Origin: Burkholderiales bacterium
GTDB lineage: Bacteria; Pseudomonadota; Gammaproteobacteria; Burkholderiales; JACQAP01
Length of the DNA: 54,324 nt
Direction of reading: 5' to 3'
NCBI GenBank assembly: GCA_036000845.1
Contig: DASYUW010000013.1
Coordinates: 1-54,324, forward strand
Shown here: in pieces, positions 6,807 through 54,324 of the stretch
Position numbering within the stretch: position 1 is the first letter of the stretch
Layout of the letters: every line of letters starts with the position of its first letter
Translations under genes and position numbers: made by a program
The notes under the pieces: generated by a model
Told to the model about the DNA's origin: nothing
Database searches by the model: none
What the model saw: the letters and a program-made list of their open reading frames with translations, nothing else

Positions 6807-6814
6807 GAACCGGC

Positions 6815-7095
6815 GATTTAGCGATTAAGTGATTAAGTGATTGAAAACCCGATTACTCAATAGCCAAATCACTCAATCACTGAAACACCCCAATAACTTA
6901 ATCCCCCAATCACTTATTGAGTTTTACGTAACCGCGCGACAAGATGGTATAGGTCCGATAGTTCCCCTCACCCTGTACTCCCTCTCCCGGAGGGAGAGGG
7001 ACAACATCACCCTTCTCCCTCCGGGAGAAGGGCCGGGGATGAGGGAGGTATTGTCACGACGTTACGTAATTCTCAATAATCACTTAATCACCGAT
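6815..7095. repeat. Composite nested repeat: GATTAAGT/AATCACTN arrays, a 16-nt IR, and two GC-rich hairpins
   Basis: Period-8 units GATTTAGC/GATTAAGT x2 (6815-6838) and AATCACTC/AATCACTG (6868-6883). An IR pairs ttgagttttacgtaac (about 6917-6932) with gttacgtaattctcaa (7061-7076). Hairpins: ccctctccc-gga-gggagaggg (6980-7000) and cccttctccc-tcc-gggagaaggg (7010-7032). Confidence 0.75.
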
Positions 7096-7100
7096 CTTCA

Positions 7101-33950: not shown

Positions 33951-33952
33951 CG

Positions 33953-34825: not shown

Positions 34826-34871
34826 CGAAAGATCTCCTTGTGGATTCACGGGGAAGCGTCGAGAGAGGATT

Positions 34872-39337: not shown

Positions 39338-40143
39338 ACAACCGCACGAGAAGCAGCAGCAAAATCCGGATCGTAGGTCTTGCGTTTATGGATATCGAAG
39401 TAGGTGGAATCCCTGGACGCCCCCCGATCGGAAGGTACCCATCCGGATTCGGTATAGCGGAAGTGCGTTTCCGTAACCTGGGTTGGCCCGAATGTTTCGA
39501 TCAGGCGGTCCACCATGGCCGCATCGAAAATCTGAAACCAGCCATGGTCCTGGTGTTTACCGAACGGCACGCTAAGGTAAAGCCTGCCTCCGGCCTTCAA
39601 TAGCCGTCGAAACTCCTTTGTCGCCTGAAGGTGTGCCAACTTGTCGCTTTCGCGTTTTTCGGGGTCCGCGGTGTACAACATCGTATTGTCCATACCGATG
39701 TGCTCGACCGTTGAAAGACTGACGACCCAATCAAAGTTCCCATCGTGGAAACACGAATCCATGAGATCTTCGTAGACATATGACACACCGTATCTACAGA
39801 AACACTCGGCCTCCGGAGCCAGCGTAGAAATGAATATCCGCTTGGAGGCCAGGCCCGGATATGTCAAAAGGAATTCGTAGTTGAGTATCGATCCCGCATC
39901 GAGCAGCGTTCCAGGTTGCCTTGGCAGCCTCGATAGAAACCAGGGATATTCCACGATGCGCTCGTCGAGCCTGAATCCATACCCGGGTGGCAGGCTCTTC
40001 GAATCAAACCTTTTCAGATTGATGATCTCTGTAATTTTCCTGCGTTTGTACGCCGCGTAGCCAAACGACCAGGGGCGCATTCCGGTCAAACGGAAAATAG
40101 TCGGCCCGATGGCGGCGTAAACCCATTTCAATAGCCGTTTCAT
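39316..40143 (-). CDS. Probable SAM-dependent methyltransferase
   Basis: LLDAGS, FDWVVSLSTVEHIG and LLKAGGRLYLSVPFG follow the class I methyltransferase motif order. This call is less certain than the others. Confidence 0.5.
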   Translation of the reverse strand: MKRLLKWVYAAIGPTIFRLTGMRPWSFGYAAYKRRKITEIINLKRFDSKSLPPGYGFRLDERIVEYPWFLSRLPRQPGTLLDAGSILNYEFLLTYPGLASKRIFISTLAPEAECFCRYGVSYVYEDLMDSCFHDGNFDWVVSLSTVEHIGMDNTMLYTADPEKRESDKLAHLQATKEFRRLLKAGGRLYLSVPFGKHQDHGWFQIFDAAMVDRLIETFGPTQVTETHFRYTESGWVPSDRGASRDSTYFDIHKRKTYDPDFAAASRAVVCLELVK

Positions 40144-40145
40144 CG

Positions 40146-41069
40146 CTAGTTCAGGTTCCAGCTTCTAATCATTCTTAATGCCTTAGCCACTACGTTACGC
40201 ACCAAGTCACCGGCTCTGCGGCGGCGAGTCGGCATCGCCGCCAGCACCTTTTTCCAATCCGGGTGAAGTTGAACCCGGGCGGGCAATCTTGCTACACGGA
40301 AATCTGGCTGCATGGGCGCCTGTTCGACGTCCGAGACCACGCAGTGCGTGCCGCTCCCGTCAAAACCGATATTCCGAACCAGCGTCCTCGCCGGGTACAG
40401 AGTCAGGCCGCCCCGATTGAACACGCTCAAATACCAGCGGATTGCCCAGGAGTCGATGCTGCCGCGTCGCTGCCGCTCCAGCATGTCGAAGTAATCGTAG
40501 GCACCATCAAGATTAAAACGATCGCGCAGATTCCGGTCTCTAACAAGCGCATCGAATCTCGTCATTTCGGGGTCGAAGTGCCGCCACGCCCTTTCCCACG
40601 TAGCCCATCCCCAGGACGTCGTAAACGGCATGAAAAAAGCGTCGGTTTCGGTAACAACATCGATTGGAAACATGTAACCGGAGACTTGCATCGCAGAATC
40701 ATCAATCTGATACCTCTCCAAAGCCCTGTTCATGTACTCCAGGAATTGAGGCGACACGACGAGATCGTCCTCCAGCACGATGACGCGACCGAATTCCTTC
40801 GTGAGGCGGGTTGTTCCGTCGATGATCGAATTCGCCAGGCCCAGATTCCCGGACCGTTCGACGACGTTGACCGATCGGAATCCCGTCACGCTTCCGGCGT
40901 AACGCCTCACCTCCGCGACGGCCGGCTCCTGCGCAGGACTCTTCGGTCCATCCGAAAAAATGTACAGGTCGGCCGCAGCCGCCGTTTCGTTCGCGAGCAG
41001 GGACTCTACCGTGCGCCGAATATGCATCGGACGGTTGTAGGCAAACAGGGCGAGCGGGGCAAAGGACAT
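40146..41069 (-). CDS. GT-A glycosyltransferase, GnT-I (GT13)-like
   Basis: LALFAYNRPMHIRRTVESL, IFSDGP and VIVLEDDLVVSPQFLEYMNRALERY. It is a paralog of 34872-35861. Confidence 0.55.
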   Translation of the reverse strand: MSFAPLALFAYNRPMHIRRTVESLLANETAAAADLYIFSDGPKSPAQEPAVAEVRRYAGSVTGFRSVNVVERSGNLGLANSIIDGTTRLTKEFGRVIVLEDDLVVSPQFLEYMNRALERYQIDDSAMQVSGYMFPIDVVTETDAFFMPFTTSWGWATWERAWRHFDPEMTRFDALVRDRNLRDRFNLDGAYDYFDMLERQRRGSIDSWAIRWYLSVFNRGGLTLYPARTLVRNIGFDGSGTHCVVSDVEQAPMQPDFRVARLPARVQLHPDWKKVLAAMPTRRRRAGDLVRNVVAKALRMIRSWNLN

Positions 41070-41073
41070 GATC

Positions 41074-42243
41074 TCAGTCGCTCGGTTTGCTTTCCGCCAC
41101 GCTTTCGTAGATGCCGGCCAGCCGCTCCCCCTGGACTATGGCGTTGAACTCGGACTCGATATGCGCCCTGCCACGATTCAGAAACCCGCCCCAGTTCTGC
41201 GGCTGCCTCACGGCACGAAGTAGACAATCTACCAGACCGTCAACGTCACGTTCCGCGGTAAGAAAGCCGGATCGCCCGTCAAGTATCACCTCCGGAATAT
41301 CGCAATGCCGGCTGCTCACAACGAACATACCGGTAGCCGCCATCTCGATCAGCGACACCGGTGCCCCTCCTTCGGTCCCGCCATCCCGCGAGGTCACGCT
41401 TGGCGCAAGGAACAGATGATGCTGGTAGGCTTCCTTGATCATGCTTGCGTGCGGCTGATACCCCAACATTCGCACTTGACGGGACAACGCGCGCTTGTCG
41501 ACGGCGGCAAGAATCTTTGCCTTCTCGGCACGGCTCTCTTCATTGTCCTGTGCATCGCCGATGATGGTGATATCGAGGTCCGCATGATCTCGCAATTGCG
41601 CGAGCGCCTCCAGGGCGTAAGGAATGCCTTTTTTCTCTGCGAAAGTCGCCGCAATTAATACCCGAAGCCGCTCATTAGGGCGCCACTGCCTCGGTCGGAA
41701 TGGGAACCTGTCCAGGCGCACTCCGAGATGATGAACGCGGATCTTGTGCTCCGGACAGCCTATATCCACGACGCAACGCGCCATGTGAGGCCCTTCGCAG
41801 AGGACTAGGTCCACTTTCCCGAACAACTCTGCAAACCGGTCACGCCAGAGCGGCTGCCCCGGGAGAAAGCTCATGTCGTACCCATAGAAAGTCACGACAT
41901 GCCTGCATTTGGCCGCCGTCACGGCGCCTAGACTCTTCCAAGCCACGTCGCCGAAATGCGAATGGATGATTTGCGCCCCGACCGAGCGGGTAACGCGCGA
42001 CAGATATCCCAGGTGCCTGCGTAATCCTGTTTTCCTGAGCGCGCGGTCCCAGAACCGCGCGGGGTTCGGCGCGCGCGAAAAATCGTGGAGATGGCGCACC
42101 GGGAACTGATCGAGGTTCACAGCTTTTTCGCAAACTACGTGGTTCTCGATTCTCTCGCCCGGCGTGCAACTGACCTGCGTATGGATCCAGGTCTGCGTCT
42201 GGGGCAGCCAGACCGGCGTGTTATGGACCACACGTAGGGTCAT
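41074..42243 (-). CDS. Glycosyltransferase family 4 (WcaL-like)
   Basis: 389 aa. EGGAPVSLIEMAATGMFVVSSRHCDIPE is the E-x7-E region. Confidence 0.7.
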   Translation of the reverse strand: MTLRVVHNTPVWLPQTQTWIHTQVSCTPGERIENHVVCEKAVNLDQFPVRHLHDFSRAPNPARFWDRALRKTGLRRHLGYLSRVTRSVGAQIIHSHFGDVAWKSLGAVTAAKCRHVVTFYGYDMSFLPGQPLWRDRFAELFGKVDLVLCEGPHMARCVVDIGCPEHKIRVHHLGVRLDRFPFRPRQWRPNERLRVLIAATFAEKKGIPYALEALAQLRDHADLDITIIGDAQDNEESRAEKAKILAAVDKRALSRQVRMLGYQPHASMIKEAYQHHLFLAPSVTSRDGGTEGGAPVSLIEMAATGMFVVSSRHCDIPEVILDGRSGFLTAERDVDGLVDCLLRAVRQPQNWGGFLNRGRAHIESEFNAIVQGERLAGIYESVAESKPSD

Positions 42244-44192
42244 CCGTTCGCATCCGCCAAGGGACGCCCCTCAACAACGCGCCGCCACCACAGGCCAAGA
42301 CTCACGAGTCGCCACAGCGCGAAAGGATTCGTGCGCCCAAATACGTCGTAGCAATCATCAATCGCAGCGACATTGAGGTAGGGATTGGAACTTTCCAGGT
42401 TCGAAATGATTTGTCGCCGGGAGGCGATGAGCCAATCGGAGAGCGGGAATGGGAAACCCATCTTGGTCCGGCGCCAGAGAACATGTTCCGGCAACAGGCC
42501 CACCATTGCCTTGCGAAGTATCCATTTGTGCCACCCATCCCGGATCAGGTATTCGGGCGGCAGCGAGAATGCAAAGTCCACAAACCGGTAATCCAGAAAT
42601 GGCGCTCGCGGTTCTATCGGGATGCCAAAGTTTGACTTATTCGCAGACCGCAACCAGTAATTCATCTTGGCGTGACCCATGTTGACACGCGTTCTTGCAG
42701 CGAATGTTTTCGGGGCCGATGTCCTTCGTCTGACGCCAGGTGGCGCGACATAACATTTTTTCAAGAATCCAGTTTCCCCGGAACGCCAACGTAGCAGGTT
42801 TTTCCAGAATTCCGGCAATGCAAGACCCATACTCAAGTCAACAGTATTTCTAAACGAGGGCGGATATTCGGTGTTTGCTTTGGCTTCCAGTACGAATCTG
42901 CGCAAATCCGCTCTTGCGAACAGGTAGAGAAGGTACGGGGCAAGGTACTCCCCGGCATACCCAGCAAGAACCTCATCCCCAGCCGCGCCGCTTATCACGA
43001 CCTTCGAGCCATCAGCCTTCATCTGCCTACGGAGGGATTGGTTGGTGTGCAGGTTGGGAGCGTGAAACGGCTCCTCTTCCGTCCAGATGAACTGATTCGC
43101 GTCTCGCCAGAAGTCATCGTGCCCGGGTTTGATTGCGCGATAGTCGACTTTTCCCTGAAAACGCTCCGCCACCGCCTTGGCGTAAGGGGCCTCGTTGTAT
43201 TTGGGGTCGGCGAACTCCACTGTGTACGATGTCAGTTGGTCAGGCAGGAATTGCGCTGCGAGTGCAACTAACGAAGACGAGTCCATGCCCCCGCTCAGTT
43301 CAAATGCCACTGGAACATCGGCCCGCACACGAATGCGGATTGCATCAACGAGGATGTCGCCGACCCGTCGAGCAGCCTCTTCCGAGGAGATGTCCGCAGT
43401 GCTCATGCGCTCGGAAGGAAGCTCCCAGAAGCGGTGTATATCTAAGCCTCCGTCCGGATATACCGACGCGAAACTCGCGGGCGGAAAATCCTCGATACCT
43501 TCCCAGAAGGTACCGTCGCGGTCGCGCCACCCTTCCACGACGTAGTCGTCGACCGCCTGCGACCTGACGGGAAAGGCGTCAGGCCCGCAAGCTGCCAGGA
43601 TTGCCTTGATCTCGGAGGCCCAGTAAAGCCGACCGTCACGGACCGCATAGTAGAGCGGCACCTTACCAAGCCGATCCCTGGCGAGAAGCAGCTTTCGAGT
43701 CCGGGAGTCATAGAGCGACACTGCCCATTGGCCGTTCAGGCGCTGAAACAACTCCCTACCCCACTCGAGGTAGCCCTCCAACAAGACCTCGGTATCCGAC
43801 TTCGTGCTGAACCTGCGACCGCGGCTCTCCAATTCGTCACGGAGTTCCACGTAGTTGTAGATCTCTCCATTGAACGACACGCACACCAGGCCGCGCGTGT
43901 CCCACATCGGCTGATGCCCGCCAGGGGTCAGATCGACGATTGAATAGCGGCAGTGGGCAAACGCGAGTTGATGGGAAAAGTTCCCAGCCGACCCGGCATC
44001 CGGCATCACCTCGCGAATTCTCGGATCACTCGAAGGAGTCGCACAGTTCATCGCCTTGCCGGCCATCGCATCGACCAGCAGCAGCCCCTGGTCGTCGGGC
44101 CCGCGGTGGGCAATGGTCCCCAGCATCTCGAGCAGCCTGCCCGTGCCGGCAAGCGGCGCGTCGAGGGAGTAGTAGCCGGCGATGCCACACAT
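42240..44192 (-). CDS. Asparagine synthase-type glutamine amidotransferase (second copy)
   Basis: MCGI, HRGPDD, FNGEIYNY and SDTEVLL, with an ELSGGMDSS PP-loop. 650 aa. Confidence 0.85.
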   Translation of the reverse strand: MCGIAGYYSLDAPLAGTGRLLEMLGTIAHRGPDDQGLLLVDAMAGKAMNCATPSSDPRIREVMPDAGSAGNFSHQLAFAHCRYSIVDLTPGGHQPMWDTRGLVCVSFNGEIYNYVELRDELESRGRRFSTKSDTEVLLEGYLEWGRELFQRLNGQWAVSLYDSRTRKLLLARDRLGKVPLYYAVRDGRLYWASEIKAILAACGPDAFPVRSQAVDDYVVEGWRDRDGTFWEGIEDFPPASFASVYPDGGLDIHRFWELPSERMSTADISSEEAARRVGDILVDAIRIRVRADVPVAFELSGGMDSSSLVALAAQFLPDQLTSYTVEFADPKYNEAPYAKAVAERFQGKVDYRAIKPGHDDFWRDANQFIWTEEEPFHAPNLHTNQSLRRQMKADGSKVVISGAAGDEVLAGYAGEYLAPYLLYLFARADLRRFVLEAKANTEYPPSFRNTVDLSMGLALPEFWKNLLRWRSGETGFLKKCYVAPPGVRRRTSAPKTFAARTRVNMGHAKMNYWLRSANKSNFGIPIEPRAPFLDYRFVDFAFSLPPEYLIRDGWHKWILRKAMVGLLPEHVLWRRTKMGFPFPLSDWLIASRRQIISNLESSNPYLNVAAIDDCYDVFGRTNPFALWRLVSLGLWWRRVVEGRPLADANG

Positions 44193-44198
44193 GGAAGT

Positions 44199-45635
44199 TC
44201 AGCGCAGAGTGTTCTTCAATCGGGCGAGGAACGGGCGCTGCCAGGGCACGATGATCGCGAGATACATGGCGGCCCCAATCACGGCCAGCACTATCAGATC
44301 CGCAACAGGGTTGCCGAACCCCAGTCCGGCATTGCGCGCCCACCGCACGAATGCCCCCATGACCGCAGCCGAGATGAGCATCGGCCCGAACGCTGCAAGG
44401 TATTCCATCGGCCGCATCCTGACCAATAGCCAGCGTATCCAGAATCCCACGGGAAAAAGACCGACGAAGAAGGCGATCGCCAGGCCGGCTGCAATGCCCT
44501 CGATGTCCCAACGTCCGCCCGCCCAGATGGCAGCGGCATACAGAATGACCATCCAGAGGTTGAGATAAAAGCCGATTTCCACCCTGCCCTTGGCAAGCAA
44601 CAGCGTGCCGATGGGATTGCCCAGGCAATAGAACATTCCCAACACGCCCAGAAGCCGGAATGTGGGCACCAGTGACGTCCAGCTTTCTCCCAGCAGAGCC
44701 AGGATAAGCGGCTCCGCCAGCACGATCATGCCGACATAGACAGGAAACAAGATCAGCGCGATCACTCGGATCGCGTCCAGGTAGCCGGCACGAAGTCGCG
44801 TATCGTCAGTTTGGACCTTCGCGAACAGCGGAAAAGAAACGCGTGTGATGATCGGGTTGAAGACCTGCATCGGCTTCATCGCGAGCTGGTAAGCCATGCT
44901 GTACAGCCCCAGCCCGTGCGATCCGATCAGGTAACCGATCAGCAGCTTGTCCAGATTGAACCCCAGGAAATTGATCGTTCGCTCCCCCATCTGAAAGGCG
45001 CCGAAACGCAGGTATCCGGCCAGATCAGGCAAATGGAAACGCAACTGCGGCCGCCATTCACGCATGCCGAGATTGAGCAGTGCCAGCGTCCGCGTCGCCG
45101 CATTCGCGAGCTGACCCCATACCAGCGAGTACACACCGTGGCCCCACCAGGCCAGGAGTACCGCGGTCGCTACGCCGACGACCGCCGACAGGACGTCGAT
45201 CGCCGCGAGGGTCTGGAAGCGCAGCCCCTTCTGCAGCAACATGGCGAACTGCTGGCCCGCCGGCGCAATCAGGAACGCAACGCCCGCCCACGCAAGCAGC
45301 CCGACGAGGCGGGGTTCGCCGTACAGGCGCGCGACAAGCGGCGCGACCAGCAGCAACACTCCGAACACCAGCAAGCCGACCACGACGTTCAACCAAAACA
45401 GCGAGGAGAGCTGCTCGCGCGTCGCATCCTGCCGCTGCACGATCGCGCTGCTCAGTCCGGCATCCGAGTAAATCTGGGCGAAACCAACCGCGATGACGGT
45501 CAGCGCCATCAAGCCGAAGTCCTCCGGAACGAGAAGGCGCGCCAGCACCGCAATCTGCAGAACCTGCAGGGCCACCGTGACCAGCGTCGCGCCCCCCGTC
45601 CACGTCGCCCCGGACAGAGCCTGTTTGCGCAGCAT
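44199..45635 (-). CDS. wzx: Oligosaccharide flippase (Wzx / polysaccharide-transport MOP family)
   Basis: The start is taken at ATG 45635 (MLRKQALSGATWTGG...). The 478-aa product is hydrophobic throughout with many predicted TM segments and the typical N-terminus of PST-family LPS biosynthesis proteins. Confidence 0.75.
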   Translation of the reverse strand: MLRKQALSGATWTGGATLVTVALQVLQIAVLARLLVPEDFGLMALTVIAVGFAQIYSDAGLSSAIVQRQDATREQLSSLFWLNVVVGLLVFGVLLLVAPLVARLYGEPRLVGLLAWAGVAFLIAPAGQQFAMLLQKGLRFQTLAAIDVLSAVVGVATAVLLAWWGHGVYSLVWGQLANAATRTLALLNLGMREWRPQLRFHLPDLAGYLRFGAFQMGERTINFLGFNLDKLLIGYLIGSHGLGLYSMAYQLAMKPMQVFNPIITRVSFPLFAKVQTDDTRLRAGYLDAIRVIALILFPVYVGMIVLAEPLILALLGESWTSLVPTFRLLGVLGMFYCLGNPIGTLLLAKGRVEIGFYLNLWMVILYAAAIWAGGRWDIEGIAAGLAIAFFVGLFPVGFWIRWLLVRMRPMEYLAAFGPMLISAAVMGAFVRWARNAGLGFGNPVADLIVLAVIGAAMYLAIIVPWQRPFLARLKNTLR

Positions 45636-45637
45636 CG

Positions 45638-46504
45638 CTATTTTTCGAGAATCCTGATGAGTAGGCTGACGCTGAACTCCCGGCGCCCCAGGTAGCGGAT
45701 TGCGGACCAGGTCCGCCAAAGCCAGTACATGCCCGGCAGTCGCGGCAGCCTGCGCCTGCGCAGCCCGTTGTCGAACATGACGCGATCCTCGTCGAGCACC
45801 AGAAACCGCCTGCGGGATTCGGCCTTGGCAATCCAGGAAAGTATCCTCGGGCGTGTGACGTACTTGATCGTATCGAGTCCCTTTGTGGGTCGACCCAGCA
45901 GGCGCAGGTACCGGCGCGCGAGCGTCCGCGGAAACATCGGCAGCCAAGGCAGCTGGTAGTGTGCTTCGAACGTGCTTCGATAGTCCGGGCACATGATGTG
46001 AATTGCGCCGCCTGGACGCGTCACCCGGACCATCTCCGCAATTGCGCTTGCCGGGTCACTAACATGCTCGAGTGTCTGGAAACTGGTGATGTAGTCGAAA
46101 GTATCGTCGGGAAAGGGAAGCCGTTCGGCAGAACCCTGATGGAATCTGTTGGCCCAGACAGCGGGGTAACCCAAAAGATCGATCTTGCGCGAGACGAAGT
46201 CCAGTCGCCATGTATCCACCTCGACACCGTCGCAGTCGAAGCCCTTCCGCAGTGCAAGCAGGACGAATTGTCCGCAGCCCGCCGCCAGATCGAGAACGCG
46301 GTGTCTGCCCGGAATAACTCCGTGGCGTTTGAGCAGCCCCAAACGCCAACGCTGATGCTTCTCGTCCCAGAAATAGTCTTCGGCCGCTTGCACCCAATCC
46401 TTCCGGACCGCACCGAAATGCTCGGATCGTCCTTGCGCAAGATACGCAACCAGTTCCGCCTTGAGGCCGGACAATGCGGCAGCTTCCAACCCGTGCTCAG
46501 CCAT
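45638..46504 (-). CDS. Class I SAM-dependent methyltransferase
   Basis: VLDLAAGCGQF, FDYITSFQTLEHV and TRPGGAIHIMCPD. Confidence 0.75.
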   Translation of the reverse strand: MAEHGLEAAALSGLKAELVAYLAQGRSEHFGAVRKDWVQAAEDYFWDEKHQRWRLGLLKRHGVIPGRHRVLDLAAGCGQFVLLALRKGFDCDGVEVDTWRLDFVSRKIDLLGYPAVWANRFHQGSAERLPFPDDTFDYITSFQTLEHVSDPASAIAEMVRVTRPGGAIHIMCPDYRSTFEAHYQLPWLPMFPRTLARRYLRLLGRPTKGLDTIKYVTRPRILSWIAKAESRRRFLVLDEDRVMFDNGLRRRRLPRLPGMYWLWRTWSAIRYLGRREFSVSLLIRILEK

Positions 46505-47222
46505 GAATCGCGCCGGCGGCGCCGACCGGCTTCCTCGCCACCACGAGATACATCCAGGTAAACTTGTCGTTCATTGGGTTGATCCGGCGGTCGATGCGAT
46601 CGAGCAAGGGAAAGACGATATTGTTAATCGCTGTCAGTGTCCGGGCGACATAGCGCAATCGGCCCCGGGCAAGCGTGTTGAGGTAATAGCTCCACTCGCT
46701 ACCGAAGGTGAGCCAGAAACCGGACGCAGGATCGAGCCTCGTCACTTCATAGCCCACGCTCTCGAACAGGTAACGCAATCCGTGCGCGGTATAGCGAAAG
46801 AAATCCCTTGGCTCCTCGTGCAAGTGCCAGAACAGCGGGACCGTATAGATCGCGTGTCCTCCGCGCTTGAGCACCCGAAACGATTCGGCGAGCGCCGCCT
46901 TCGGCTCCTCCAGATGTTCGAGTACCGCGGTACAGACGATTCCGTCAAACGAATCGTCCGGCTGGGGAATCCGATACGCTGTGCCGACCAGATCCACCCT
47001 GGACTTGTCATGCAACGATCCTTCGTGGTCGAGTCCGACGTACTCGATAACGCGCTCGTTCACCAACAGGCGCTTCGCCTTTTCGCCGCAACCGATGTCG
47101 AGCACGCGTCCGTGGAGAAACTTGTCCATCGCCAGAATCAGAAGTGCCGCGCCTCGCCTGATCACCATCCGCGCCGGATTAGTGATTCCATAGGGTCTGA
47201 GATAGGCCTGCAGGTCCCGCAC
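46497..47222 (-). CDS. Class I SAM-dependent methyltransferase
   Basis: VLDIGCGEK, FDGIVCTAVLEHL and LKRGGHAIYTVP. Confidence 0.75.
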   Translation of the reverse strand: MRDLQAYLRPYGITNPARMVIRRGAALLILAMDKFLHGRVLDIGCGEKAKRLLVNERVIEYVGLDHEGSLHDKSRVDLVGTAYRIPQPDDSFDGIVCTAVLEHLEEPKAALAESFRVLKRGGHAIYTVPLFWHLHEEPRDFFRYTAHGLRYLFESVGYEVTRLDPASGFWLTFGSEWSYYLNTLARGRLRYVARTLTAINNIVFPLLDRIDRRINPMNDKFTWMYLVVARKPVGAAGAIHG

Positions 47223-47224
47223 GG

Positions 47225-47941
47225 TCAGGATTCACTGTCCGGTTTTGAGGTCGCCGCCGGCGAATAACGGCGCCGGAATACGGTCGCGGCCGGATCGCCT
47301 TTGGCGATCACATCGTCGTTGATGAATCCGCCCAGGCGAACCACGCTGTTCGGCGCCACCCAGGCGTCCCTGCCTATTGTCGCCCCGGGCAGCACCAGCA
47401 CGTTCGACGCGACCCCTGATCCGTCCTTCATCTCGACGTACCCCCTCAGCACGCACTGCTCTTCGAGGGCGGCGCCTTGGGAGTACTTGTAGATCCGGCC
47501 GGGGTCCCTGCCCTGGTGATGAAAGGTCTCCGAAAGCAGGACTGAGTAGGGCCCGATACCGCACTTCTCGCCGATTGCGATGCCACCGTAACCGAGGATG
47601 ACCGCACCGAAGGCGATCCGCGCCCGGTCGCGAATCAGCACCACACCCCGCTCCCTGTCCGCATAACTGCCGAGTTCCACAACTTCACGTTTCTCTTCAG
47701 ACGGAATGCCCGCGCGCAGCACGACGTTTTCGCGAATCATGACATCATCGCCGATCTCCATGAACTTCTCGCCGTCAAGGTGGACGCCAGGCATGACCGT
47801 GAGATTCTTCCCGCAACGCCGCAGTCTCCGGCCGTAGTACCAGCGACGCAGCAATATGCCTGCTTCGCCCGGAAGATAAATCACCGCCCCCAGCAACAGG
47901 CTTCTGGGCAAGGTGAGCAGGAAGCGCAACAGATCGGGCAT
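47225..47941 (-). CDS. Hexapeptide-repeat (LbH) acyltransferase with hydrophobic N-terminus
   Basis: The start is taken at ATG 47941 (MPDLLRFLLTLPRSLLLGAVIYLP). It has repeated [LIV]G-x4 units (IGDDVMIRENVVL, IAFGAVILGYGGIAIGEKCGIGP, VLPGATIGRDAWVAPNSVV). Confidence 0.7.
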   Translation of the reverse strand: MPDLLRFLLTLPRSLLLGAVIYLPGEAGILLRRWYYGRRLRRCGKNLTVMPGVHLDGEKFMEIGDDVMIRENVVLRAGIPSEEKREVVELGSYADRERGVVLIRDRARIAFGAVILGYGGIAIGEKCGIGPYSVLLSETFHHQGRDPGRIYKYSQGAALEEQCVLRGYVEMKDGSGVASNVLVLPGATIGRDAWVAPNSVVRLGGFINDDVIAKGDPAATVFRRRYSPAATSKPDSES

Positions 47942-47949
47942 CTCGGCGT

Positions 47950-48183
47950 TTATTTTTTCCCGTCGAGATAACCCACGATCAGGCGCACGGTGTTGAGCCG
48001 GTCGATCTCGCCGTCCGGGACGCGGACGCCAAGCTTCTCGTAGATGGCCAGAAAAATCCCCGCCACGTCGAGGGAATCCACACCGAGATCCTTGAGGGGA
48101 GTGTCGTAGTCGCTCTCGCCGACACGCACCTGGCTGCAAACGTCCTCGACTATCGCCACCACTTCGCTTGCCGTCTCACTCAA
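47950..48183 (-). CDS. Acyl carrier protein (dedicated)
   Basis: The start is taken at TTG 48183, which has gaaggaga 7 nt upstream. The 77-aa product has LGVDSLD, the phosphopantetheine-attachment DSL motif. Confidence 0.75.
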   Translation of the reverse strand: MSETASEVVAIVEDVCSQVRVGESDYDTPLKDLGVDSLDVAGIFLAIYEKLGVRVPDGEIDRLNTVRLIVGYLDGKK

Positions 48184-48221
48184 TTCGGAATCTCCTTCAA
48201 ACAGTTTCTGCCGGGCCTGAC

Positions 48222-49154
48222 TCAGGCGCGCCGTTCGATCAGGCAACTCGCCCACGACAATCCGACGCCGAATCCTGACATCAGAACACGACCGATCTTC
48301 GGATCATCCAGGCAGGCCTCGAACAGCAGCGGGATCGAGGACGACACCGTGTTGCCCTGCTCTGCGAGATTCGACGGCACTTTCGCAGGCGGAAGCCCCA
48401 GGCGCTTGATCAGCGTGTCGACAATATAACGGCTGCCTTGATGAAACAGAAACAAGTCCACTGCATCGGGACCGATTCCCGCAGCCTCGAGCAATTCTTT
48501 CACCTGCCCGGGCACCGCGGTGGCGGAAAAATTGAAAACGGCGCGTCCGTTCATCTCGAGCCTGCCACTGTCGTTGTTGAGCGCCCTGCCTTCCTGCCCT
48601 CGTGTACCGAACAGAAATCGCGTCGGCACCCACAGTGAGTCTGCGTCCGCTTCCAGAAGGGTTACGGTAGCCGCATCGCCGAACAACAGCACGGTGTTCT
48701 TGTCGCCGGGGTCGAGGATCTTCGAGTAGGGATCGGCGGTGAATAGCAGGCCCCGCTTCAAACCGTTCGCCTCCATGAAACTCTTCGCAAGGGACAGTGA
48801 ATAGACGTACCCCGAACACCCCAGCGACACATCGAAAGCCGCACAGCGTTCGCCCGCGCCGATGGCGCCATGGACGACGGCCGAAGTATGGGGAATGCCG
48901 TGTCCGTCCGGATTCTGGGTGCAGACAATCAGGCAATCGATGTCGCCGGGCGCAACCGCGGTTTTCCCCTGCAGCGCTGCGAAAGCCTTTGCACAAAGCG
49001 AGGACGTATCCTCGTCCGCGGCTTTTCTGGAGACTCTCTCGACGCCGAGTTTCCCGACGATGAAATCGTCGGTCAGGCCGAACTCGTCGCGACGGTCGTA
49101 GTTCGAAAGACGATCCCGTGGGACGTAGCTTGCTATCGCACGGATGCCGATCAT
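48222..49154 (-). CDS. 3-oxoacyl-ACP synthase III (FabH-like KAS III)
   Basis: CSGYVYSL (active-site Cys), FHQGSRYI (His) and QGNTVSSSIPL (Asn). 310 aa. Confidence 0.8.
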   Translation of the reverse strand: MIGIRAIASYVPRDRLSNYDRRDEFGLTDDFIVGKLGVERVSRKAADEDTSSLCAKAFAALQGKTAVAPGDIDCLIVCTQNPDGHGIPHTSAVVHGAIGAGERCAAFDVSLGCSGYVYSLSLAKSFMEANGLKRGLLFTADPYSKILDPGDKNTVLLFGDAATVTLLEADADSLWVPTRFLFGTRGQEGRALNNDSGRLEMNGRAVFNFSATAVPGQVKELLEAAGIGPDAVDLFLFHQGSRYIVDTLIKRLGLPPAKVPSNLAEQGNTVSSSIPLLFEACLDDPKIGRVLMSGFGVGLSWASCLIERRA

Positions 49155-49798
49155 GCACGCGCCAGGGAGAAAAAGATGTGGCCGATCGCTTCGCCGTGCA
49201 CCTTGATTTCCGATTTCGTCAGCCGGTTGTAAAGATTTTCCTTCAGCGTGATCGTAATGGCGGCCGCATCCGCGCTATGAAATAAGCGACGCAAGTCGAG
49301 TTTGGTGAAGACCCAACGGCCATGGGGCACACGAAGCTTGTTGCTGTGCAAGTGCTTGGTCATCGACACAGCAACCTCGATTGGCAGACAACCCGCATCT
49401 CCGCTGGCTGAAATGGCGTTATGCTGGAACGCACAGTGCCGGGCAATCCTTTCTTCGTCATACGGGACTCGGCAAACGACTTGGCGATCTGTCTCGACCA
49501 GCCATCCGACCGCCGATTTTCCGTTGCCGGACACGGAGAAATCCACCACCGCCTTTTCGGGACGCGCTGAGGCGCGCGCCCCTTCCAGCCAGTATATGTC
49601 GGGCTCGAAACTGAAGAAGCGGTGAATGCTCATCTGCAAGCGGTCAACTGCGCCCCCCATGTTGGTGCTCGTCAAGCCCGCGAGTGCCTCGTAGATATCC
49701 GTGCCGTGCAGGTAATCACGACTTCCTTTGAAACAAAGATGAAGCGGCACAATCTCTGGATTCATGGTTTCTGCCGGACAGCACCGCGGCTCATGCAC
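49151..49798 (-). CDS. Hypothetical protein, unrecognised family
   Basis: 215 aa (or 204 aa from ATG 49765). It overlaps the aminotransferase stop by 8 nt and the KASIII start by 4 nt. I can name no motif. Confidence 0.5.
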   Translation of the reverse strand: MHEPRCCPAETMNPEIVPLHLCFKGSRDYLHGTDIYEALAGLTSTNMGGAVDRLQMSIHRFFSFEPDIYWLEGARASARPEKAVVDFSVSGNGKSAVGWLVETDRQVVCRVPYDEERIARHCAFQHNAISASGDAGCLPIEVAVSMTKHLHSNKLRVPHGRWVFTKLDLRRLFHSADAAAITITLKENLYNRLTKSEIKVHGEAIGHIFFSLARA

Positions 49799-51041
49799 CC
49801 GCGATCACCACCTGGACGGCAGCTACGACGTCTTCAACGTCCGCGTCACTCAGCTTCGCCGACAGCGGGATGCTGACTGTCTGCCTGCCGATGCGCATCG
49901 CGTTCGGAAAATCCTCCGGCCGCCAGCCGAAAGCCTGCTTATAGTAGGGATGTTCGGGAATGCTCAGATAGTGCACGCCTACTCCGATATTCTGCCCGGT
50001 CATTCCGTCGAGAAAGCGGTCGCGACTGGCCCCGGCCGCGCGCTCGTCGATCAACAGGGTATAGAGGTGATAGGCGTGCCGGGTATCGGGTTCGGGTGCG
50101 GCCGGCAGGGTGATCGGCAGACCGACGAACGCCTCATCGTAGCGCCGCCAGATTTCCCGTCGGCGCAGCCAGTTGCGCTCGACGCGCTCGAGCTGGTGGA
50201 TGCCGATGGCCGCCTGGATATCCATCATGTTGTACTTGAAACCCGCGTCCACGACCTGATAGTGCTTGTAGCCCTCGTCGCTGAAGCGTTTCCACGCATC
50301 CTTGCTCATCCCGTGCAACGCCAGAACCTTGATGCGCGCCAGGTCTTCTTCGCGCCGCGTGAGCACCATTCCACCCTCGCCGCTGACAATATTCTTCGTT
50401 ACGTAAAAGCTGAAGCACCCGAAGTCGCCGAAGGTTCCCGCCCTGCGGCCGCGATACTCGGTCTCGACCGCATGCGCGCAGTCTTCGATCAGCTTCAAGT
50501 GGTGCCGCTCAGCGAGCGCACACAAGGCATCCATGTCGCACGTCCTGCCGCCGAAATGCACGGGAACCAACGCCTTTGTCCGGCTGGTAAGCTTCCTCTC
50601 CACGTCAGCCGGATCGATGTTCATGGTTAGCGGGTCCACGTCGGCGAGGACCGGAGTGGCGCCCGCGTGGACGATGGCGTTGACGGTCGCGCAAAAAGTC
50701 AGCGCAGTGGTAATGACTTCGTCGCCGGGTTTCACACCCGAGGCAAGCAGCGCCAGGTGCAGTGCGGCGGTACAGGAGTTGACCGCCGCGGCATGGTCTG
50801 CGCCCTTGTAGGCGGCGAACTCGCGCTCGAACCGTGCCACACGGGGACCGGTGCCGAGCCAGCCGGAGCGCATGGTCGCTACGACTTCCTGGATCTCGGC
50901 GTCTTCGATGGCTGGCGCGCCGAAAACCAGAAACTGTTCACGAGTTCGCACGGGATATAGGCTGCCGTAGTGCGACAAAAGTCGCCGTTCTGTGAGATTG
51001 ATCATGCCCGAGGTCGGCGCATGGAGGGTCTGCTTCGGCAA
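49791..51041 (-). CDS. DegT/DnrJ/EryC1/StrS-family PLP sugar aminotransferase
   Basis: FGAPAIEDAEIQEVVATMRSGWLGTGPRV, AVNSCTAALHLAL and FSFYVTKNI (PLP Lys). The start may be ATG 51005. Confidence 0.85.
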   Translation of the reverse strand: MPKQTLHAPTSGMINLTERRLLSHYGSLYPVRTREQFLVFGAPAIEDAEIQEVVATMRSGWLGTGPRVARFEREFAAYKGADHAAAVNSCTAALHLALLASGVKPGDEVITTALTFCATVNAIVHAGATPVLADVDPLTMNIDPADVERKLTSRTKALVPVHFGGRTCDMDALCALAERHHLKLIEDCAHAVETEYRGRRAGTFGDFGCFSFYVTKNIVSGEGGMVLTRREEDLARIKVLALHGMSKDAWKRFSDEGYKHYQVVDAGFKYNMMDIQAAIGIHQLERVERNWLRRREIWRRYDEAFVGLPITLPAAPEPDTRHAYHLYTLLIDERAAGASRDRFLDGMTGQNIGVGVHYLSIPEHPYYKQAFGWRPEDFPNAMRIGRQTVSIPLSAKLSDADVEDVVAAVQVVIAGA

Positions 51042-51138: not shown

Positions 51139-52170
51139 CTAGGCTCGGGAATACGCCTTGTTCAGTCTGGTTTCCCATCGGAATGCCGTTTCGCAAATCA
51201 CCTCCAGGTCGTCATGCTTCGGCTTCCAGCCCAGCACTTTCCTGATTCTCGATGATTCGGCTACCAGCTCGGGCGGATCACCCGGCCGGCGCGGTCCGTC
51301 CTGGACGGGAAACTCGACCCCCGCTGCCTTCTGCACCGCATGCAACACCTGGCGCACGCTCACGCCTCGACCGTAGCCGCAGTTGAACGTGTCCGACGCC
51401 CCGCTTCCGTCCAGGTAAGCGAGCGCATCGAGATGCGCGCGCGCCAGGTCTTCCACGTGGATGTAGTCGCGTATGCAGGTGCCATCCGGCGTTGGATAGT
51501 CGGTGCCGAAGACGGTAACCTTGTCGCGCACCCCGCATGCCGCTTCGCAGGCCACCTTGATCAGGTGTGTTGCGGCGGGCGTGGCCTGTCCGAGGGTGCC
51601 GTCGAGGCTGGCACCCGCCACATTGAAGTAGCGCAAGGCCGCATAGCGAAAACTCGCGTCCTTCACGGCGCCCCGCTGCTCCAAGCTGGCAACCACGTCC
51701 CGGAGCATCAATTCGGTTATGAGCTTGGTGGTGCCGTAGGGATTGATCGGCCGCAGCCGCGCCGACTCGGGAACCGGCTGCCGATTGGGAATTCCGTAAA
51801 CCGCAGCCGATGAGGAAAAGACGAATTTCTCCACCCGTTTGTGGAGGCAAACCTCGATCAGGTTTCGGGAAGCGGCGACGTTGTTCCGGTAGTACTTGAG
51901 AGGATCGCTCACCGACTCGGGAACGACGATGCTGCCGGCGAAGTGAACCACGGCGCCAATCGCATGCTGCTCGATCAGCACGCCGACCAGCGCCTGGTTG
52001 CCGGCGTCACCGGCCACCACAACCGCATCCGGCGGCACGGCCCAGCGCTGCCCGGTGGAAAAATCGTCCAGCACGACCACCCGCTGGCCCTCGGCGATCA
52101 GCCGCCGGACGGTGTGGGAACCGATGTAACCGGCCCCACCGGTCACCAGCACTGTGTCACCCACGGTCAC
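51139..52170 (-). CDS. galE: UDP-glucose 4-epimerase
   Basis: VLVTGGAGYIGSH, PYGTTKLITE (YxxxK) and RDYIHVEDLA are the canonical GalE pattern. Confidence 0.85.
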   Translation of the reverse strand: MTVGDTVLVTGGAGYIGSHTVRRLIAEGQRVVVLDDFSTGQRWAVPPDAVVVAGDAGNQALVGVLIEQHAIGAVVHFAGSIVVPESVSDPLKYYRNNVAASRNLIEVCLHKRVEKFVFSSSAAVYGIPNRQPVPESARLRPINPYGTTKLITELMLRDVVASLEQRGAVKDASFRYAALRYFNVAGASLDGTLGQATPAATHLIKVACEAACGVRDKVTVFGTDYPTPDGTCIRDYIHVEDLARAHLDALAYLDGSGASDTFNCGYGRGVSVRQVLHAVQKAAGVEFPVQDGPRRPGDPPELVAESSRIRKVLGWKPKHDDLEVICETAFRWETRLNKAYSRA

Positions 52171-53144
52171 GCTGTTGCCACCGCATACCGGCTCTTGAGA
52201 AAGTCGGCATAGGCGAGCTTCAGGCCGTCTTCGAGCCGCGTCCTGTATGTCCAGCCCAGACTTGCGAGCAGCGAAACGTCCATCAACTTGCGCGGCGTAC
52301 CGTCGGGTTTGGATGCGTCGAATACCAGCCTGCCTTCGAAGCCGACCACTTTGGCAATAACGTGTGCGAGCTCACGGATGCTGAGATCCTCACCTGAGCC
52401 GACGTTGACAAGCGGCGGACGGGAGCGGCTTTCGCACAGGTGCCCGTAGTTTTCCTCCGCCATGCAGAGGAGGTACAGACAGGCGTCCGCCGCATCTTCG
52501 GAGTACAGGAACTCGCGCTTCGGCGAACCCGTGCCCCAGACAATGACTTCGCCGCTTGCTTTGGCCCGGGCTTCGTGCATCTTGCGAATCAGCGCGGGGA
52601 TCACGTGCGATGTATTCAGATCGTAGTTGTCGCCCGGCCCGTACAGGTTGGTGGGCATGGCGGCGAGGTATCGGCAGCCGTATTCGCGGTTGTAGCTCCA
52701 GCACATTTCCACCCCAGCAATCTTAGCGATCGCGTACGCGCGATTGGTCGCCTCGAGCGGCCCGGTAAGCAGGTACTCTTCCTTGATCGGTTGCGGACAA
52801 TCGCGCGGATAAATGCACGACGAACCGAGGAACAGCAGGCGCTTGACGCCCGTGCGCCAGGCTTCGTGAATCACGTTGTCCTGGATCTCGAGATTTTCGC
52901 GGAGGAATTCCGCGGGAAACGTGTCGTTGGCGATAACGCCGCCGACCCTGGCCGCGGCCAGAACCACGTGATCGGGCCGCTCGCGCTCGAAAAACTCGCG
53001 CACCGCCACTTGTTCCTTGAGCTCGAGCTCGGCGTGGGTGCGGGTGAGGAGACTGCGATATCCCGCGGCCTGCAGACGCCGCATGATCGCCGAGCCAACA
53101 AGACCCCGATGGCCAGCGACGTAGATTTTGGAGTCCAAATGCAT
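52167..53144 (-). CDS. fcl: GDP-L-fucose synthase (GDP-4-keto-6-deoxymannose 3,5-epimerase/4-reductase)
   Basis: The start is taken at ATG 53144 (MHLDSKIYVAGHRGLVGSAI). It has LGSSCIYP and YAIAKIAG (YxxxK). Confidence 0.85.
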   Translation of the reverse strand: MHLDSKIYVAGHRGLVGSAIMRRLQAAGYRSLLTRTHAELELKEQVAVREFFERERPDHVVLAAARVGGVIANDTFPAEFLRENLEIQDNVIHEAWRTGVKRLLFLGSSCIYPRDCPQPIKEEYLLTGPLEATNRAYAIAKIAGVEMCWSYNREYGCRYLAAMPTNLYGPGDNYDLNTSHVIPALIRKMHEARAKASGEVIVWGTGSPKREFLYSEDAADACLYLLCMAEENYGHLCESRSRPPLVNVGSGEDLSIRELAHVIAKVVGFEGRLVFDASKPDGTPRKLMDVSLLASLGWTYRTRLEDGLKLAYADFLKSRYAVATA

Positions 53145-53145
53145 C

Positions 53146-53275
53146 GAGTGATTAAGTGATTGGGTAATGGTAAATGGGGAATGGGTAATGGGTGATTGAA
53201 TCATTCAATCACCCATTACCCCTCGCTCATCATTCATCACTCATCACTCCTCACTCATCGCCCAATCCCCACCTC
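53146..53275. repeat. Mirror array with a perfect 39-nt palindrome between gmd and fcl
   Basis: The left side has period-7/8 units (gtgatta agtgatt gggtaat ggtaaat ggggaat gggtaat gggtgat). The palindrome is gggtaatgggtgattgaat-c-attcaatcacccattaccc (53183-53221). The right side has units ctcatca ttcatca ctcatca ctcctca ctcatcg. Confidence 0.8.
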
Positions 53276-54324
53276 ACTCATGGAAGTCGTAGGGACGATG
53301 GCCGTGGCGCTTGACCAGCTCGTCGCGTTCCGCCGCCTTCAGGTCCTCGCTCGCCATTTCCTCAACCAGTTGTTCGAAACCGACCTTGGCGGACCAGCCG
53401 AGTTTGCTCTTCGCCCTCGACGGATCGCCAAGCAGCGTGTCGACTTCGGCCGGTCGAAAGTAGCGCGGATCGACCGCTACGCACATGCGGCCGGCGCCGT
53501 CGAAGGCCTTCTCGTCCAGGCCTTTGCCCGACCACTTCAGTTTCATGCCAAGCTTTTGCGCTGCGAGATCGACGAAATCGCGCACGCTGTGCTGGATGCC
53601 GGTGGCAATGACAAAATCCTCGGGCTGAGGCTGCTGAAGTATCAGCCACTGGGCCTCGACGAAATCACGGGCGTGCCCCCAGTCGCGTCTGGCGTCGAGA
53701 TTGCCGAGATAAACACAGTCCTGCAGACCCAGCTTGATACGGGCCAGTGCCCGAGTGATCTTGCGGGTGACGAAGGTCTCCCCGCGCACGGGGCTTTCGT
53801 GATTAAAAAGTATGCCGTTGCAGGCGAACATTCCATAGGCTTCGCGGTAGTTGACCGTGATCCAGTAGGCGTAGAGCTTGGCTACTCCGTAAGGAGAGCG
53901 TGGGTAGAACGGCGTGGTTTCCTTTTGCGGGCTTTCGCGGACCAGGCCATACATCTCCGATGTCGAAGCCTGATAGAAACGGCTCTTCTTTTCCAACCCC
54001 AGAATGCGGATCGCTTCCAGCAGACGCAGCGCGCCCAGCGCGTCCGAATTTGCGGTGTACTCGGGCTCTTCGAAGGACACCGCGACGTGGCTCTGTGCCG
54101 CGAGATTGTAGATCTCGTCCGGCTGCACCTGCTGGATGATTCTTACCAGGCTGCTGGAATCGGTCATGTCTCCGTAATGGAGAATGAAATTGCGATTGCT
54201 TACGTGCGGGTCCTGGTAAAGATGATCTATGCGATCGGTATTGAACAGGGAGGTGCGGCGCTTGATGCCGTGCACCTCGTAGCCCTTGGCAAGCAGGAAT
54301 TCGGCGAGGTATGCACCATCCTGG
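53274..54324 (-). CDS. gmd: GDP-mannose 4,6-dehydratase (5' end beyond window)
   Basis: [50 protein letters not shown] and [10 protein letters not shown] are classic Gmd blocks. The ORF runs off the right edge of the window. Confidence 0.9.

Follow-up and report, generated by a model that had tools for sequence, protein, structure and literature searches.

The window analysed here is a 54,324-nucleotide stretch of DNA from a Burkholderiales bacterium (GenBank assembly GCA_036000845.1, contig DASYUW010000013.1). It contains, at 47,225–51,041, five consecutive genes encoding a DegT-family pyridoxal phosphate (PLP)-dependent sugar aminotransferase, a double hot-dog protein, a FabH-like KAS III enzyme (β-ketoacyl-ACP synthase III), a dedicated acyl carrier protein (ACP) and an acyltransferase of the left-handed β-helix (LbH) type. 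Sequence, predicted structure and gene context, on which the whole analysis is based, suggest that these genes probably form the core of a portable ACP-dependent sugar-acylation cassette, in which an acyl group would be made on a private ACP and moved to a sugar aminated by the DegT enzyme. An initial annotation of this stretch had recognized the run of five genes, which is borne out and lies entirely on the minus strand, and had proposed that the KAS III and the ACP build a short β-keto or hydroxy acyl group for an amino sugar. This proposal is now supported by comparative evidence and by a precedent in viosamine biosynthesis.

Conservation of the gene cassette

The surroundings of the hot-dog gene were compared in 26 informative loci drawn from metagenome contigs, from species-representative genomes and from genomes sampled within the phylum. 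The KAS III gene directly follows the hot-dog gene on the same strand in 24 of them, usually overlapping it or lying a few bases away, and the ACP gene comes next. In one of the two exceptions, L027, a gene for an AAC(3)-type N-acetyltransferase abuts the hot-dog gene, and the KAS III and ACP genes lie next door in divergent orientation. The other, L028, is a 2.2-kb contig on which genes for a short-chain dehydrogenase/reductase (SDR) ketoreductase, the hot-dog protein, an ACP and an AMP-binding enzyme follow one another (87–2247) and no KAS III gene is visible.

The order DegT, hot-dog, KAS III, ACP and LbH (type A) is found in nine other, independent loci (L002, L003/L006, L007, L008, L009, L013, L041, L042 and L043) at 38–80% protein identity, and an orthologous DegT gene (60–79% identity) stands directly upstream of the hot-dog gene in all nine. 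The type A loci belong to Burkholderiales, other Gammaproteobacteria, Pirellulales, Thermodesulfobacteriota and unclassified metagenome contigs, and their LbH gene is mostly followed by genes for a methyltransferase (MT1) and a Wzx-type flippase. MT1 is found after or near LbH in L002, L006, L007, L008, L013, L042 and L043, and a second methyltransferase, MT2, in L002, L006 and L043. Genes for an AsnB-like amidotransferase and a GT4 glycosyltransferase follow Wzx in L002, L003/L006, L007 and L043, and AsnB alone does so in L042. The cassette arrangement is thus conserved far beyond chance.

In a second group of loci (type B: L004, L005, L010, L012, L014, L015, L018, L034, L035 and one contig without DNA), the hot-dog, KAS III and ACP genes, hereafter the trio, are embedded in a pseudaminic-acid cluster together with a NeuD/LpxD-like LbH gene. 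Compared with the window, the hot-dog proteins are 24–42% and the KAS III enzymes 47–65% identical, the ACPs are orthologous, and the loci agree with it both in gene order and in the abutting or overlapping junction between hot-dog and KAS III. In L018, from Rheinheimera, PseB, PseC, PseF, PseG and PseI all score above the NCBIfam equivalog cut-offs, flagellin genes flank the cluster, and the LbH gene and the trio are placed between pseG and pseI. The DNA read of the pseudaminic-acid loci, at least seven of which have a complete pathway, showed no PseH-type GNAT gene, which supports ACP-dependent N-acylation. The LbH proteins of type A and type B share only the generic repeat, and the trio is therefore found with three unrelated types of acyltransferase, namely the XAT-like LbH of the window type, the NeuD/LpxD-like LbH and the AAC(3)-type N-acetyltransferase of L027. 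In every context examined, the trio lies in a sugar locus next to an acyltransferase gene. Since it is combined with at least three unrelated acyltransferases, there is good comparative evidence that its product would serve as the acyl donor for amino-sugar acylation.

Several loci show further features. The acetyltransferase of L027 (5029–9034) matches PF02522, and genes for a DUF4910/DUF2172 (M28-like) protein and an AsnB homologue lie downstream. Most pseudaminic-acid-type cassettes have a conserved gene for a HemL-like class III aminotransferase just upstream of pseG (L005, 341–1732, and also L004, L010, L014, L015, L034 and L035); it is fused to a CMP-transferase-like domain in L004 and is absent from L018, and one idea is that the enzyme transaminates a β-keto acyl group. 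L012, a 3994-bp contig binned as a Thermoplasmata archaeon, has a pseudaminic-acid-type cassette almost colinear with that of L004; either the contig is mis-binned or the cassette was transferred into an archaeon, where FabD and AcpP would be missing. In the Thiomargarita-type loci (L016, 2963–3575; L017, 1708–2808), the ACP gene is followed by one for a 366-residue protein with no Pfam match, whose N-terminus looks GNAT-like by eye and which may be a fourth kind of acyltransferase partner. In L008, the same 443-aa open reading frame (ORF) occurs twice in inverted orientation (743–2074 on the minus strand, 6298–7629 on the plus strand). The block that it brackets, just upstream of the cassette, holds glycosyltransferase genes and a second, divergent gene of the gmd type (313 bits, cut-off 415) and looks like an insertion flanked by insertion sequences.

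The double hot-dog protein

The second gene of the cassette had been annotated as an unrecognized protein of 215 residues. The lack of a family match stands: single-protein scans against Pfam and NCBIfam (E ≤ 0.01) gave no match, and searches with the family against Pfam (E ≤ 10) and PDB sequences returned nothing usable. The length is revised, because a probable ATG start at 49,765 within the ORF at 49,151–49,798 gives a protein of 204 residues (49,151–49,765), matching the orthologues, and the fold can be assigned. An AlphaFold2 model built from an alignment of 27 relatives (mean pLDDT 93.9) is a compact double hot-dog with two consecutive units, in each of which a long helix is wrapped by a sheet. 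The leading Foldseek matches are thioesterase II, acyl-ACP thioesterases (FatA and others from bacteria) and polyketide synthase (PKS) dehydratase domains; the thioesterases at the top (3bbj, 4gak and FatA) have E values of 2e-6 to 1e-5. An exhaustive VIA search gives Z scores of 10–12.5 to PKS dehydratase, enoyl-isomerase and product-template domains and to TesB-type thioesterases, with 12.1 for the thioesterase 4r9z, and 8.1 over 159 aligned residues for LnmK (PDB 6X7L). A word-index search that returned 28 relatives had suggested a very rare family, and this was overturned by a full profile search, which finds 1650 sequence clusters at E ≤ 1e-3 and 468 at E ≤ 1e-30; the members listed are all about 200 residues long. 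Of 401 genomes sampled from the phylum, 5 carry the gene.

All 172 aligned members have Arg16 and Tyr18, and Glu104, Trp151, Glu/Asp130 at the start of helix 2 and Lys/Arg13 are nearly as constant; Thr183 is also conserved. No histidine is invariant in this alignment. Position 20 is His in 65% of the members and Gln in 28%, the rest having Thr, Arg or Ser, and His140 is replaced by Leu or Met in 9%. In the secondary structure of the model, the loop that precedes the first hot-dog helix contains position 20; this is presumably the site where dehydratases carry their catalytic histidine. Since no histidine is invariant and position 20 is often Gln, the conservation pattern argues against a canonical dehydratase. 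The conserved residues would fit thioester-cleaving hot-dog enzymes, either thioesterases that use Glu/Asp with Gln/Thr/Tyr or LnmK. A plausible though tentative hypothesis is that the hot-dog protein cleaves a thioester on the private ACP, acting as a CoA/ACP transacylase or as an editing thioesterase. Editing thioesterases partner the KAS III/ACP initiation modules of type II PKSs and provide an analogy for such a role.

LnmK of leinamycin biosynthesis, a double hot-dog acyltransferase/decarboxylase that acts on CoA and ACP thioesters, has Tyr62 as its nucleophile and no catalytic histidine (PMC11350588). The window protein shares the double hot-dog fold, and its invariant Tyr18 may be comparable to Tyr62. 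LnmK is about 100 residues longer, has no detectable sequence similarity to the hot-dog protein and ranks below PKS dehydratase domains and TesB. The genes of both proteins lie next to those for a dedicated ACP and a thiolase-fold enzyme.

The main alternative is a dehydratase or isomerase role for the hot-dog protein, downstream of a reduction that FabG performs in trans, so that a crotonyl-type or rearranged acyl group is delivered instead of a 3-oxo or 3-hydroxy one. The hot-dog fold is common to dehydratases, thioesterases, isomerases, decarboxylases and product-template domains, and the model resembles PKS dehydratase domains (Z about 12) more closely than LnmK; its best Z matches are PKS dehydratase and enoyl-isomerase domains (11.6–12.5). 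A conserved Y-L-H-G-x-D motif just before the first hot-dog helix would agree with a dehydratase, as would L028, where the hot-dog gene lies directly after the SDR ketoreductase gene and before those of the ACP and the adjacent AMP-binding enzyme. The shared fold, the closer match to dehydratase domains and L028 weigh against a thioester-cleaving enzyme. The missing invariant histidine, however, tells against the alternative: no characterised hot-dog dehydratase is known to work without a catalytic histidine, and N-crotonyl sugars are not known to have been described. A dehydratase or isomerase thus appears unlikely.

A role of the protein as a phosphopantetheinyl transferase is ruled out by the wrong fold and the lack of a match to the ACPS family. 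A complex prediction with two copies of KAS III and the hot-dog protein gave a score of 0.00, which is evidence neither way.

The LbH acyltransferase

The last gene of the cassette (47,225–47,941, with an ATG start at 47,941) encodes a 238-residue hexapeptide-repeat protein (Hexapep, E 3.4e-10), whose best PDB match is VatD (E 3e-4) and which matches WbbJ and WcaF at E values of 1e-5 to 1e-7. Its score against the NeuD/PglB/VioB family TIGR03570 is 24.6 bits (E 1.6e-5), far from the cut-off of 160.8. By sequence, it belongs to the XAT/WcaF-like branch, composed mostly of O-acetyltransferases, and not to the PglD/PerB/VioB branch. The hydrophobic N-terminus noticed earlier is confirmed, the first 40 residues being helical, hydrophobic and conserved in the orthologues. 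A membrane anchor was considered for this segment and rejected, as it is modelled as three short helices with charged residues and prolines and is conserved as sequence. The AlphaFold2 model, built from a six-row alignment, has a pLDDT of 58 and was excluded from fold searches. The close relatives form 125 clusters, all at least 50% identical, and the three relatives sampled, including one from a Pirellulales metagenome-assembled genome, all sit in the same cassette. The LbH protein is presumed to be an acyl-ACP-dependent transferase. A precedent among LbH enzymes is GlmU, an acetyltransferase outside LpxA/LpxD that prefers acetyl-ACP as the donor (PMC8666670).

Because the enzyme belongs to the O-acetyltransferase branch, the transfer of the acyl group to nitrogen rather than to oxygen, as proposed in the initial annotation, is a probable reading and, for type A, the main weak point. 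It is conceivable that the cassette O-acylates a sugar hydroxyl, with the amino group installed by DegT left free or modified by other enzymes encoded in the locus, through acetylation or methylation. Several features weigh in this direction and hence against N-acylation: the only relatives of known function are O-acetyltransferases (VatD, WbbJ and WcaF), a His-containing loop pattern typical of this branch can be read from the sequence, the protein is neither orthologous nor related to the NeuD/LpxD-like N-acyltransferase of the pseudaminic-acid cassettes, and the locus has another, WbbJ-like LbH gene at 38,753–39,337 as well as many methyltransferase genes. Against O-acylation, the DegT gene stands directly upstream of the hot-dog gene in all type A loci that include upstream DNA, suggesting that amination and acylation are coupled; other cassette types pair the trio with an N-acyltransferase in the place of PseH or with an AAC(3)-type enzyme; and no dedicated PglD, PerB or GNAT N-acetyltransferase was found beside DegT. 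N-acylation is accordingly preferred, and O-acylation seems quite unlikely.

The second LbH gene, on the minus strand of the same operon, encodes 194 residues. Its best match is a WbbJ-type O-acetyltransferase (88 bits), it also matches WcaF and NeuD, and it may acetylate the same sugar or another one.

KAS III and ACP are private copies

The KAS III (48,222–49,154; PF08545 and PF08541) has Cys in GCSG, His in FHQGS and Asn in GNTVSSS, corresponding to C112, H244 and N274 of E. coli FabH in the alignment. The intact Cys-His-Asn triad reported in the initial annotation is therefore correct; it is kept in all 16 orthologues (47–80% identity), as is the oxyanion-hole glycine, and fits a decarboxylating condensing enzyme. 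The ACP (47,950–48,183; PF00550, E 1.7e-10) is, as described before, a 77-residue protein with a DSL motif, the site of phosphopantetheine attachment, and its own ribosome-binding site, an AAGGAG Shine–Dalgarno sequence 7 nt upstream of the TTG start at 48,183. KAS III scores below the FabH cut-offs (TIGR00747, 180.5 bits against 292.1; PRK09352, 215.1 against 249), and the ACP below the AcpP cut-off (TIGR00517, 36 bits against 70.45). The genome has a complete housekeeping plsX-fabH-fabD-fabG-acpP-fabF cluster on contig C60, whose products are 55–72% identical to those of E. coli; its fabH, beside fabD, fabG and acpP, scores 450.7 bits, and its acpP (C60: 9521–9742) 118 bits. The cassette KAS III and ACP are each 32% identical to these counterparts. 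Because the C60 cluster is complete, the two cassette genes are, on sequence grounds, extra copies and not the housekeeping ones, and FabD and FabG are available in trans.

Homologues of FabG, FabD or an acyl-ACP ligase are not detectable anywhere in the 54-kb window, and tblastn with E. coli FabG and the SDR of L028 found no match for a ketoreductase in it; its remaining SDR-fold genes encode sugar epimerases or dehydratases. The earlier remark that no ketoreductase or acyl-ACP ligase is visible thus holds and extends to FabD.

KAS III-like acyltransferases decorate sugars in natural-product pathways. The cassette KAS III could be such an acyl shuttle, of the CerJ/ChlB6/DpsC kind, carrying a ready-made acyl group between CoA, the ACP and the sugar, with the hot-dog protein supplying or trimming the acyl group, for example from malonyl to acetyl as MadB or LnmK would. 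In favour of this, hot-dog malonyl-thioester decarboxylases are known (MadA and MadB, PMC8666670; LnmK), and the KAS III scores lie below the FabH cut-offs. The invariance of the triad and of the oxyanion-hole glycine speaks against a shuttle, and so does the viosamine KAS III, which has been assigned the production of acetoacetyl-ACP (PMC3927599). A shuttle is improbable on this evidence, and the condensing role is retained. Non-condensing KAS III homologues usually lack the Asn or the Cys. Finally, that KAS III and the ACP work in lipid A or general fatty-acid synthesis and are in a glycan locus incidentally, as the dependence of a cassette without FabD, FabG and FabZ on housekeeping enzymes might suggest, is hardly credible in view of the complete C60 cluster, the divergence of the cassette copies below the equivalog cut-offs and the sugar-locus context of the trio.

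The DegT aminotransferase and its sugar substrate

The first gene of the cassette (49,791–51,005, within the ORF at 49,791–51,041; probable ATG start at 51,005) encodes a member of the DegT/DnrJ/EryC1 family (PF01041, E 3.7e-127). Among PDB sequences, ArnB ranks first (286 bits) and the Caulobacter perosamine synthase next (242 bits). The enzyme scores 356.5 bits against the ArnB model NF008658 (cut-off 631) and 354.6 bits against the PseC model TIGR03588 (cut-off 423.5); its sequence identity is 38% with E. coli ArnB, 35% with a PseC, 33% with WecE and 32% with Per of E. coli O157. A maximum-likelihood tree that included E. coli ArnB, O157 Per, WecE and PseC places the type A DegT enzymes in a clade of their own (support 100/99), separate from the PseC enzymes of L018, L014 and L015, with an unresolved backbone. 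The protein is probably a 4-aminotransferase, closest to ArnB and the perosamine synthases; its substrate class is not assignable by homology, for which gene context is more informative.

The initial annotation had pointed to perosamine on account of a gmd gene a few genes upstream. The gmd gene (53,274–54,324, minus strand; GDP-mannose 4,6-dehydratase, TIGR01472, 525.6 bits against a cut-off of 415) indeed lies three genes upstream of DegT, and is followed by two genes that went unmentioned, fcl (52,167–53,204, minus strand; GDP-L-fucose synthase, NF047922, 459.5 bits, E 5.8e-138, slightly below the cut-off of 500) and a galE-type UDP-hexose 4-epimerase gene (51,139–52,170, minus strand; TIGR01179, 423.3 bits against 262.3). 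In L043, a gmd gene whose product is 81% identical to that of the window stands directly upstream of the orthologous DegT gene, with manC beside it; L008 has gmd and a second gmd-like gene nearby, L002 has manC and L003 has fcl, and altogether manC, gmd or fcl is near five loci of the window's type. This context, above all the position of gmd in L043, favours GDP-4-keto-6-deoxymannose as the substrate, and it is reasonably likely that a perosamine-type product is made. A UDP-4-keto-pentose, as for ArnB, is the alternative. Weighing against perosamine, the gmd of the window is also explained by the adjacent fcl as part of a route to GDP-fucose, fcl and galE stand between gmd and DegT, a UXS/ArnA-like gene is present at 23,924–24,877, and the DegT clade has no settled position among ArnB, Per, WecE and PseC. 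The earlier proposal is thus strengthened by L043 and weakened by the lack of a homology-based class and by fcl.

ECs_2841 of E. coli O157:H7 Sakai (L038, 2258–3352), located in the O157 O-antigen cluster between wzx and ECs_2840 (hypothetical)/gmd, is annotated 'arnB' in RefSeq. It is the perosamine synthase gene per/rfbE, and its label illustrates how easily homology confuses ArnB with Per.

A model for ACP-dependent sugar acylation

The following steps are proposed for the cassette, of which all but the third draw on family membership, conserved residues and conserved gene order. First, DegT would aminate a 4-keto nucleotide sugar, most likely GDP-4-keto-6-deoxymannose supplied by the neighbouring gmd. 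Second, the cassette ACP would be malonylated, probably by housekeeping FabD in trans, and KAS III would condense malonyl-ACP with a short acyl-CoA, most likely acetyl-CoA, to yield a 3-oxoacyl-ACP, probably acetoacetyl-ACP. This product may stay in the 3-oxo form, be reduced by FabG to 3-hydroxybutyryl-ACP or be altered otherwise. The cassette has no ketoreductase, which weighs against the scheme and makes the oxidation state of the acyl group a guess. Third, and this is the weakest step, the hot-dog protein would act on the thioester of the private ACP, either as a transacylase via Arg16-x-Tyr18 or as an editing acyl-ACP thioesterase. Fourth, LbH would transfer the ACP-bound acyl group to the sugar, with the new 4-amino group as the most likely acceptor. 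Fifth, one or more methyltransferases would methylate the decorated sugar, GT4 would add it to the repeat unit and Wzx would export the product.

A bolder extension, which is rather unlikely in its full form, is that the hot-dog protein founds a new family of about 1650 clusters of histidine-independent Arg-x-Tyr enzymes that act on ACP thioesters and are required for priming or passing on the acyl group of a KAS III/ACP module lacking a reductase. In that case, the cassette would place an undescribed acyl group, such as an acetoacetyl or methylated β-keto group, on a perosamine-type sugar, and its relatives would place one on N7 of pseudaminic acid.

Comparison with known systems

The viosamine island of Pseudomonas syringae pv. 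tabaci 6605, comprising vioA, vioM, vioT, vioS, vioB, vioR and acp, leads to N-(3-hydroxybutanoyl)-2-O-methylviosamine, a decorated 4-amino-4,6-dideoxyhexose, with dTDP-N-acetoacetylviosamine as a proposed intermediate (PMC3927599). vioA encodes an aminotransferase, vioS a KAS III, vioR a 3-oxoacyl-ACP reductase, vioB an LbH protein and vioM a methyltransferase of 241 residues; mutants of vioA, vioB, vioT, vioR and vioM have been analysed by mass spectrometry, and homologues orfA–orfG and orfN are found in the flagellin glycosylation island of P. aeruginosa PAK (PMC3927599). This island is the closest described system, set against the window by gene descriptions and not by sequences. Both combine DegT, KAS III, a small private ACP, LbH and a methyltransferase of about 240 residues in one sugar locus. 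The viosamine island has the reductase VioR and no hot-dog protein in its gene list, whereas the window has the hot-dog protein and no reductase; VioB belongs to the NeuD/PglB/VioB family of LbH proteins, and the window LbH does not; and viosamine is dTDP-linked and ends up on flagellin, whereas the sugar of the window is probably GDP-linked and destined for a Wzx-dependent polysaccharide. Type B clusters have the PseB/C/G/I/F pathway, whereas the window type has an ArnB/Per-like DegT, an XAT-like LbH, methyltransferases, Wzx, AsnB and GT4. The concept of the cassette is therefore not new, because a reductase-containing version has been genetically characterised in Pseudomonas. A characterised counterpart is not known for the reductase-less form with a hot-dog protein, nor for its pairing with an ArnB/Per-like aminotransferase and an XAT-like LbH, and literature searches returned no account of a sugar cassette that combines hot-dog, KAS III and ACP genes.

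In the N-acylation of perosamine in Vibrio cholerae O1 (rfbKLMNO), gmd and a perosamine synthase provide the sugar. The group II flagellar glycosylation islands of Aeromonas encode an ACP, a 3-oxoacyl-ACP reductase, an AMP-dependent synthetase, LuxE and LuxC (PMC7874193). Like the window, both systems have a locus-encoded ACP for decorating an amino sugar or nonulosonic acid, but their ACP is loaded by an AMP-dependent ligase, they use reductases and they have no KAS III, whereas the window has neither ligase nor reductase. The analogy with V. cholerae O1 drawn in the initial annotation is more distant than that with the viosamine island. In O-antigen and capsule loci, 3-hydroxybutanoyl transferases encoded by a single gene (FdhC, QdhC, QhbC, PsaG/H and LgaH/I) give rise to amino sugars and nonulosonic acids with an N-(3-hydroxybutanoyl) group, among them Pse5Ac7RHb. 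Their gene modules list no private KAS III or ACP, and the donor presumably comes from general metabolism. The flagellin glycosylation locus of Campylobacter jejuni NCTC 11168 may carry fabH2 and acpP2/acpP3, which the paper on Cj1295 does not mention.

Layout of the polysaccharide operon

The cassette is part of a minus-strand polysaccharide operon that spans 41–54 kb of the window. The gmd ORF is open at the window end and its TIGR01472 match begins at profile position 27; its 5' end probably reaches or passes the edge. Within the cassette, the DegT stop lies 25 nt before the hot-dog ATG or overlaps an alternative GTG, and the hot-dog stop overlaps the KAS III start in the sequence ATGA, as read directly at the junction. 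Downstream of LbH, and like all other genes of this block on the minus strand, follow the genes for MT1, a class I S-adenosylmethionine (SAM)-dependent methyltransferase of 241 residues (46,497–47,222; Methyltransf_11, E 4.9e-16), and MT2, a second SAM methyltransferase (45,638–46,504; Methyltransf_11, E 4.5e-18). The Wzx-type flippase gene (44,199–45,992; Polysacc_synt_3, E 2.5e-86) has a conserved position across loci; since its orthologues have about 480 residues, translation probably starts at a site downstream of the GTG listed for it. An AsnB-like glutamine amidotransferase gene (42,240–44,192; Asn_synthase and GATase_7) comes next, and a GT4 glycosyltransferase gene (41,074–42,243; Glycos_transf_1 and Glyco_trans_1_4) ends the conserved block.

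At least five clear SAM methyltransferase genes are present in 33,168–47,222 (at 46,497, 45,638, 37,942, 33,953 and, of the TylF type, 33,168), with a possible sixth, weak match at 39,316, and two divergent AsnB-like amidotransferases are encoded in the operon (at 42,240 and 29,067). The gene content suggests that the polysaccharide of this operon is heavily methylated and amidated.

Biological significance

N-acyl groups on amino sugars and nonulosonic acids shape the antigenicity of O-antigens, capsules and flagellins as well as phage recognition. Their acyl donors are usually assumed to be CoA thioesters of general metabolism. The cassette described here and its pseudaminic-acid relatives, spread over several bacterial phyla, suggest that self-contained donor-making on a private ACP is widespread, with an unannotated but structurally well-predicted protein family at its core. 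Assignment of the hot-dog reaction would annotate more than 1000 hypothetical proteins and allow glycan decorations to be predicted from sequence, and could add a compact KAS III/ACP/transferase set to the tools for glyco-engineering.

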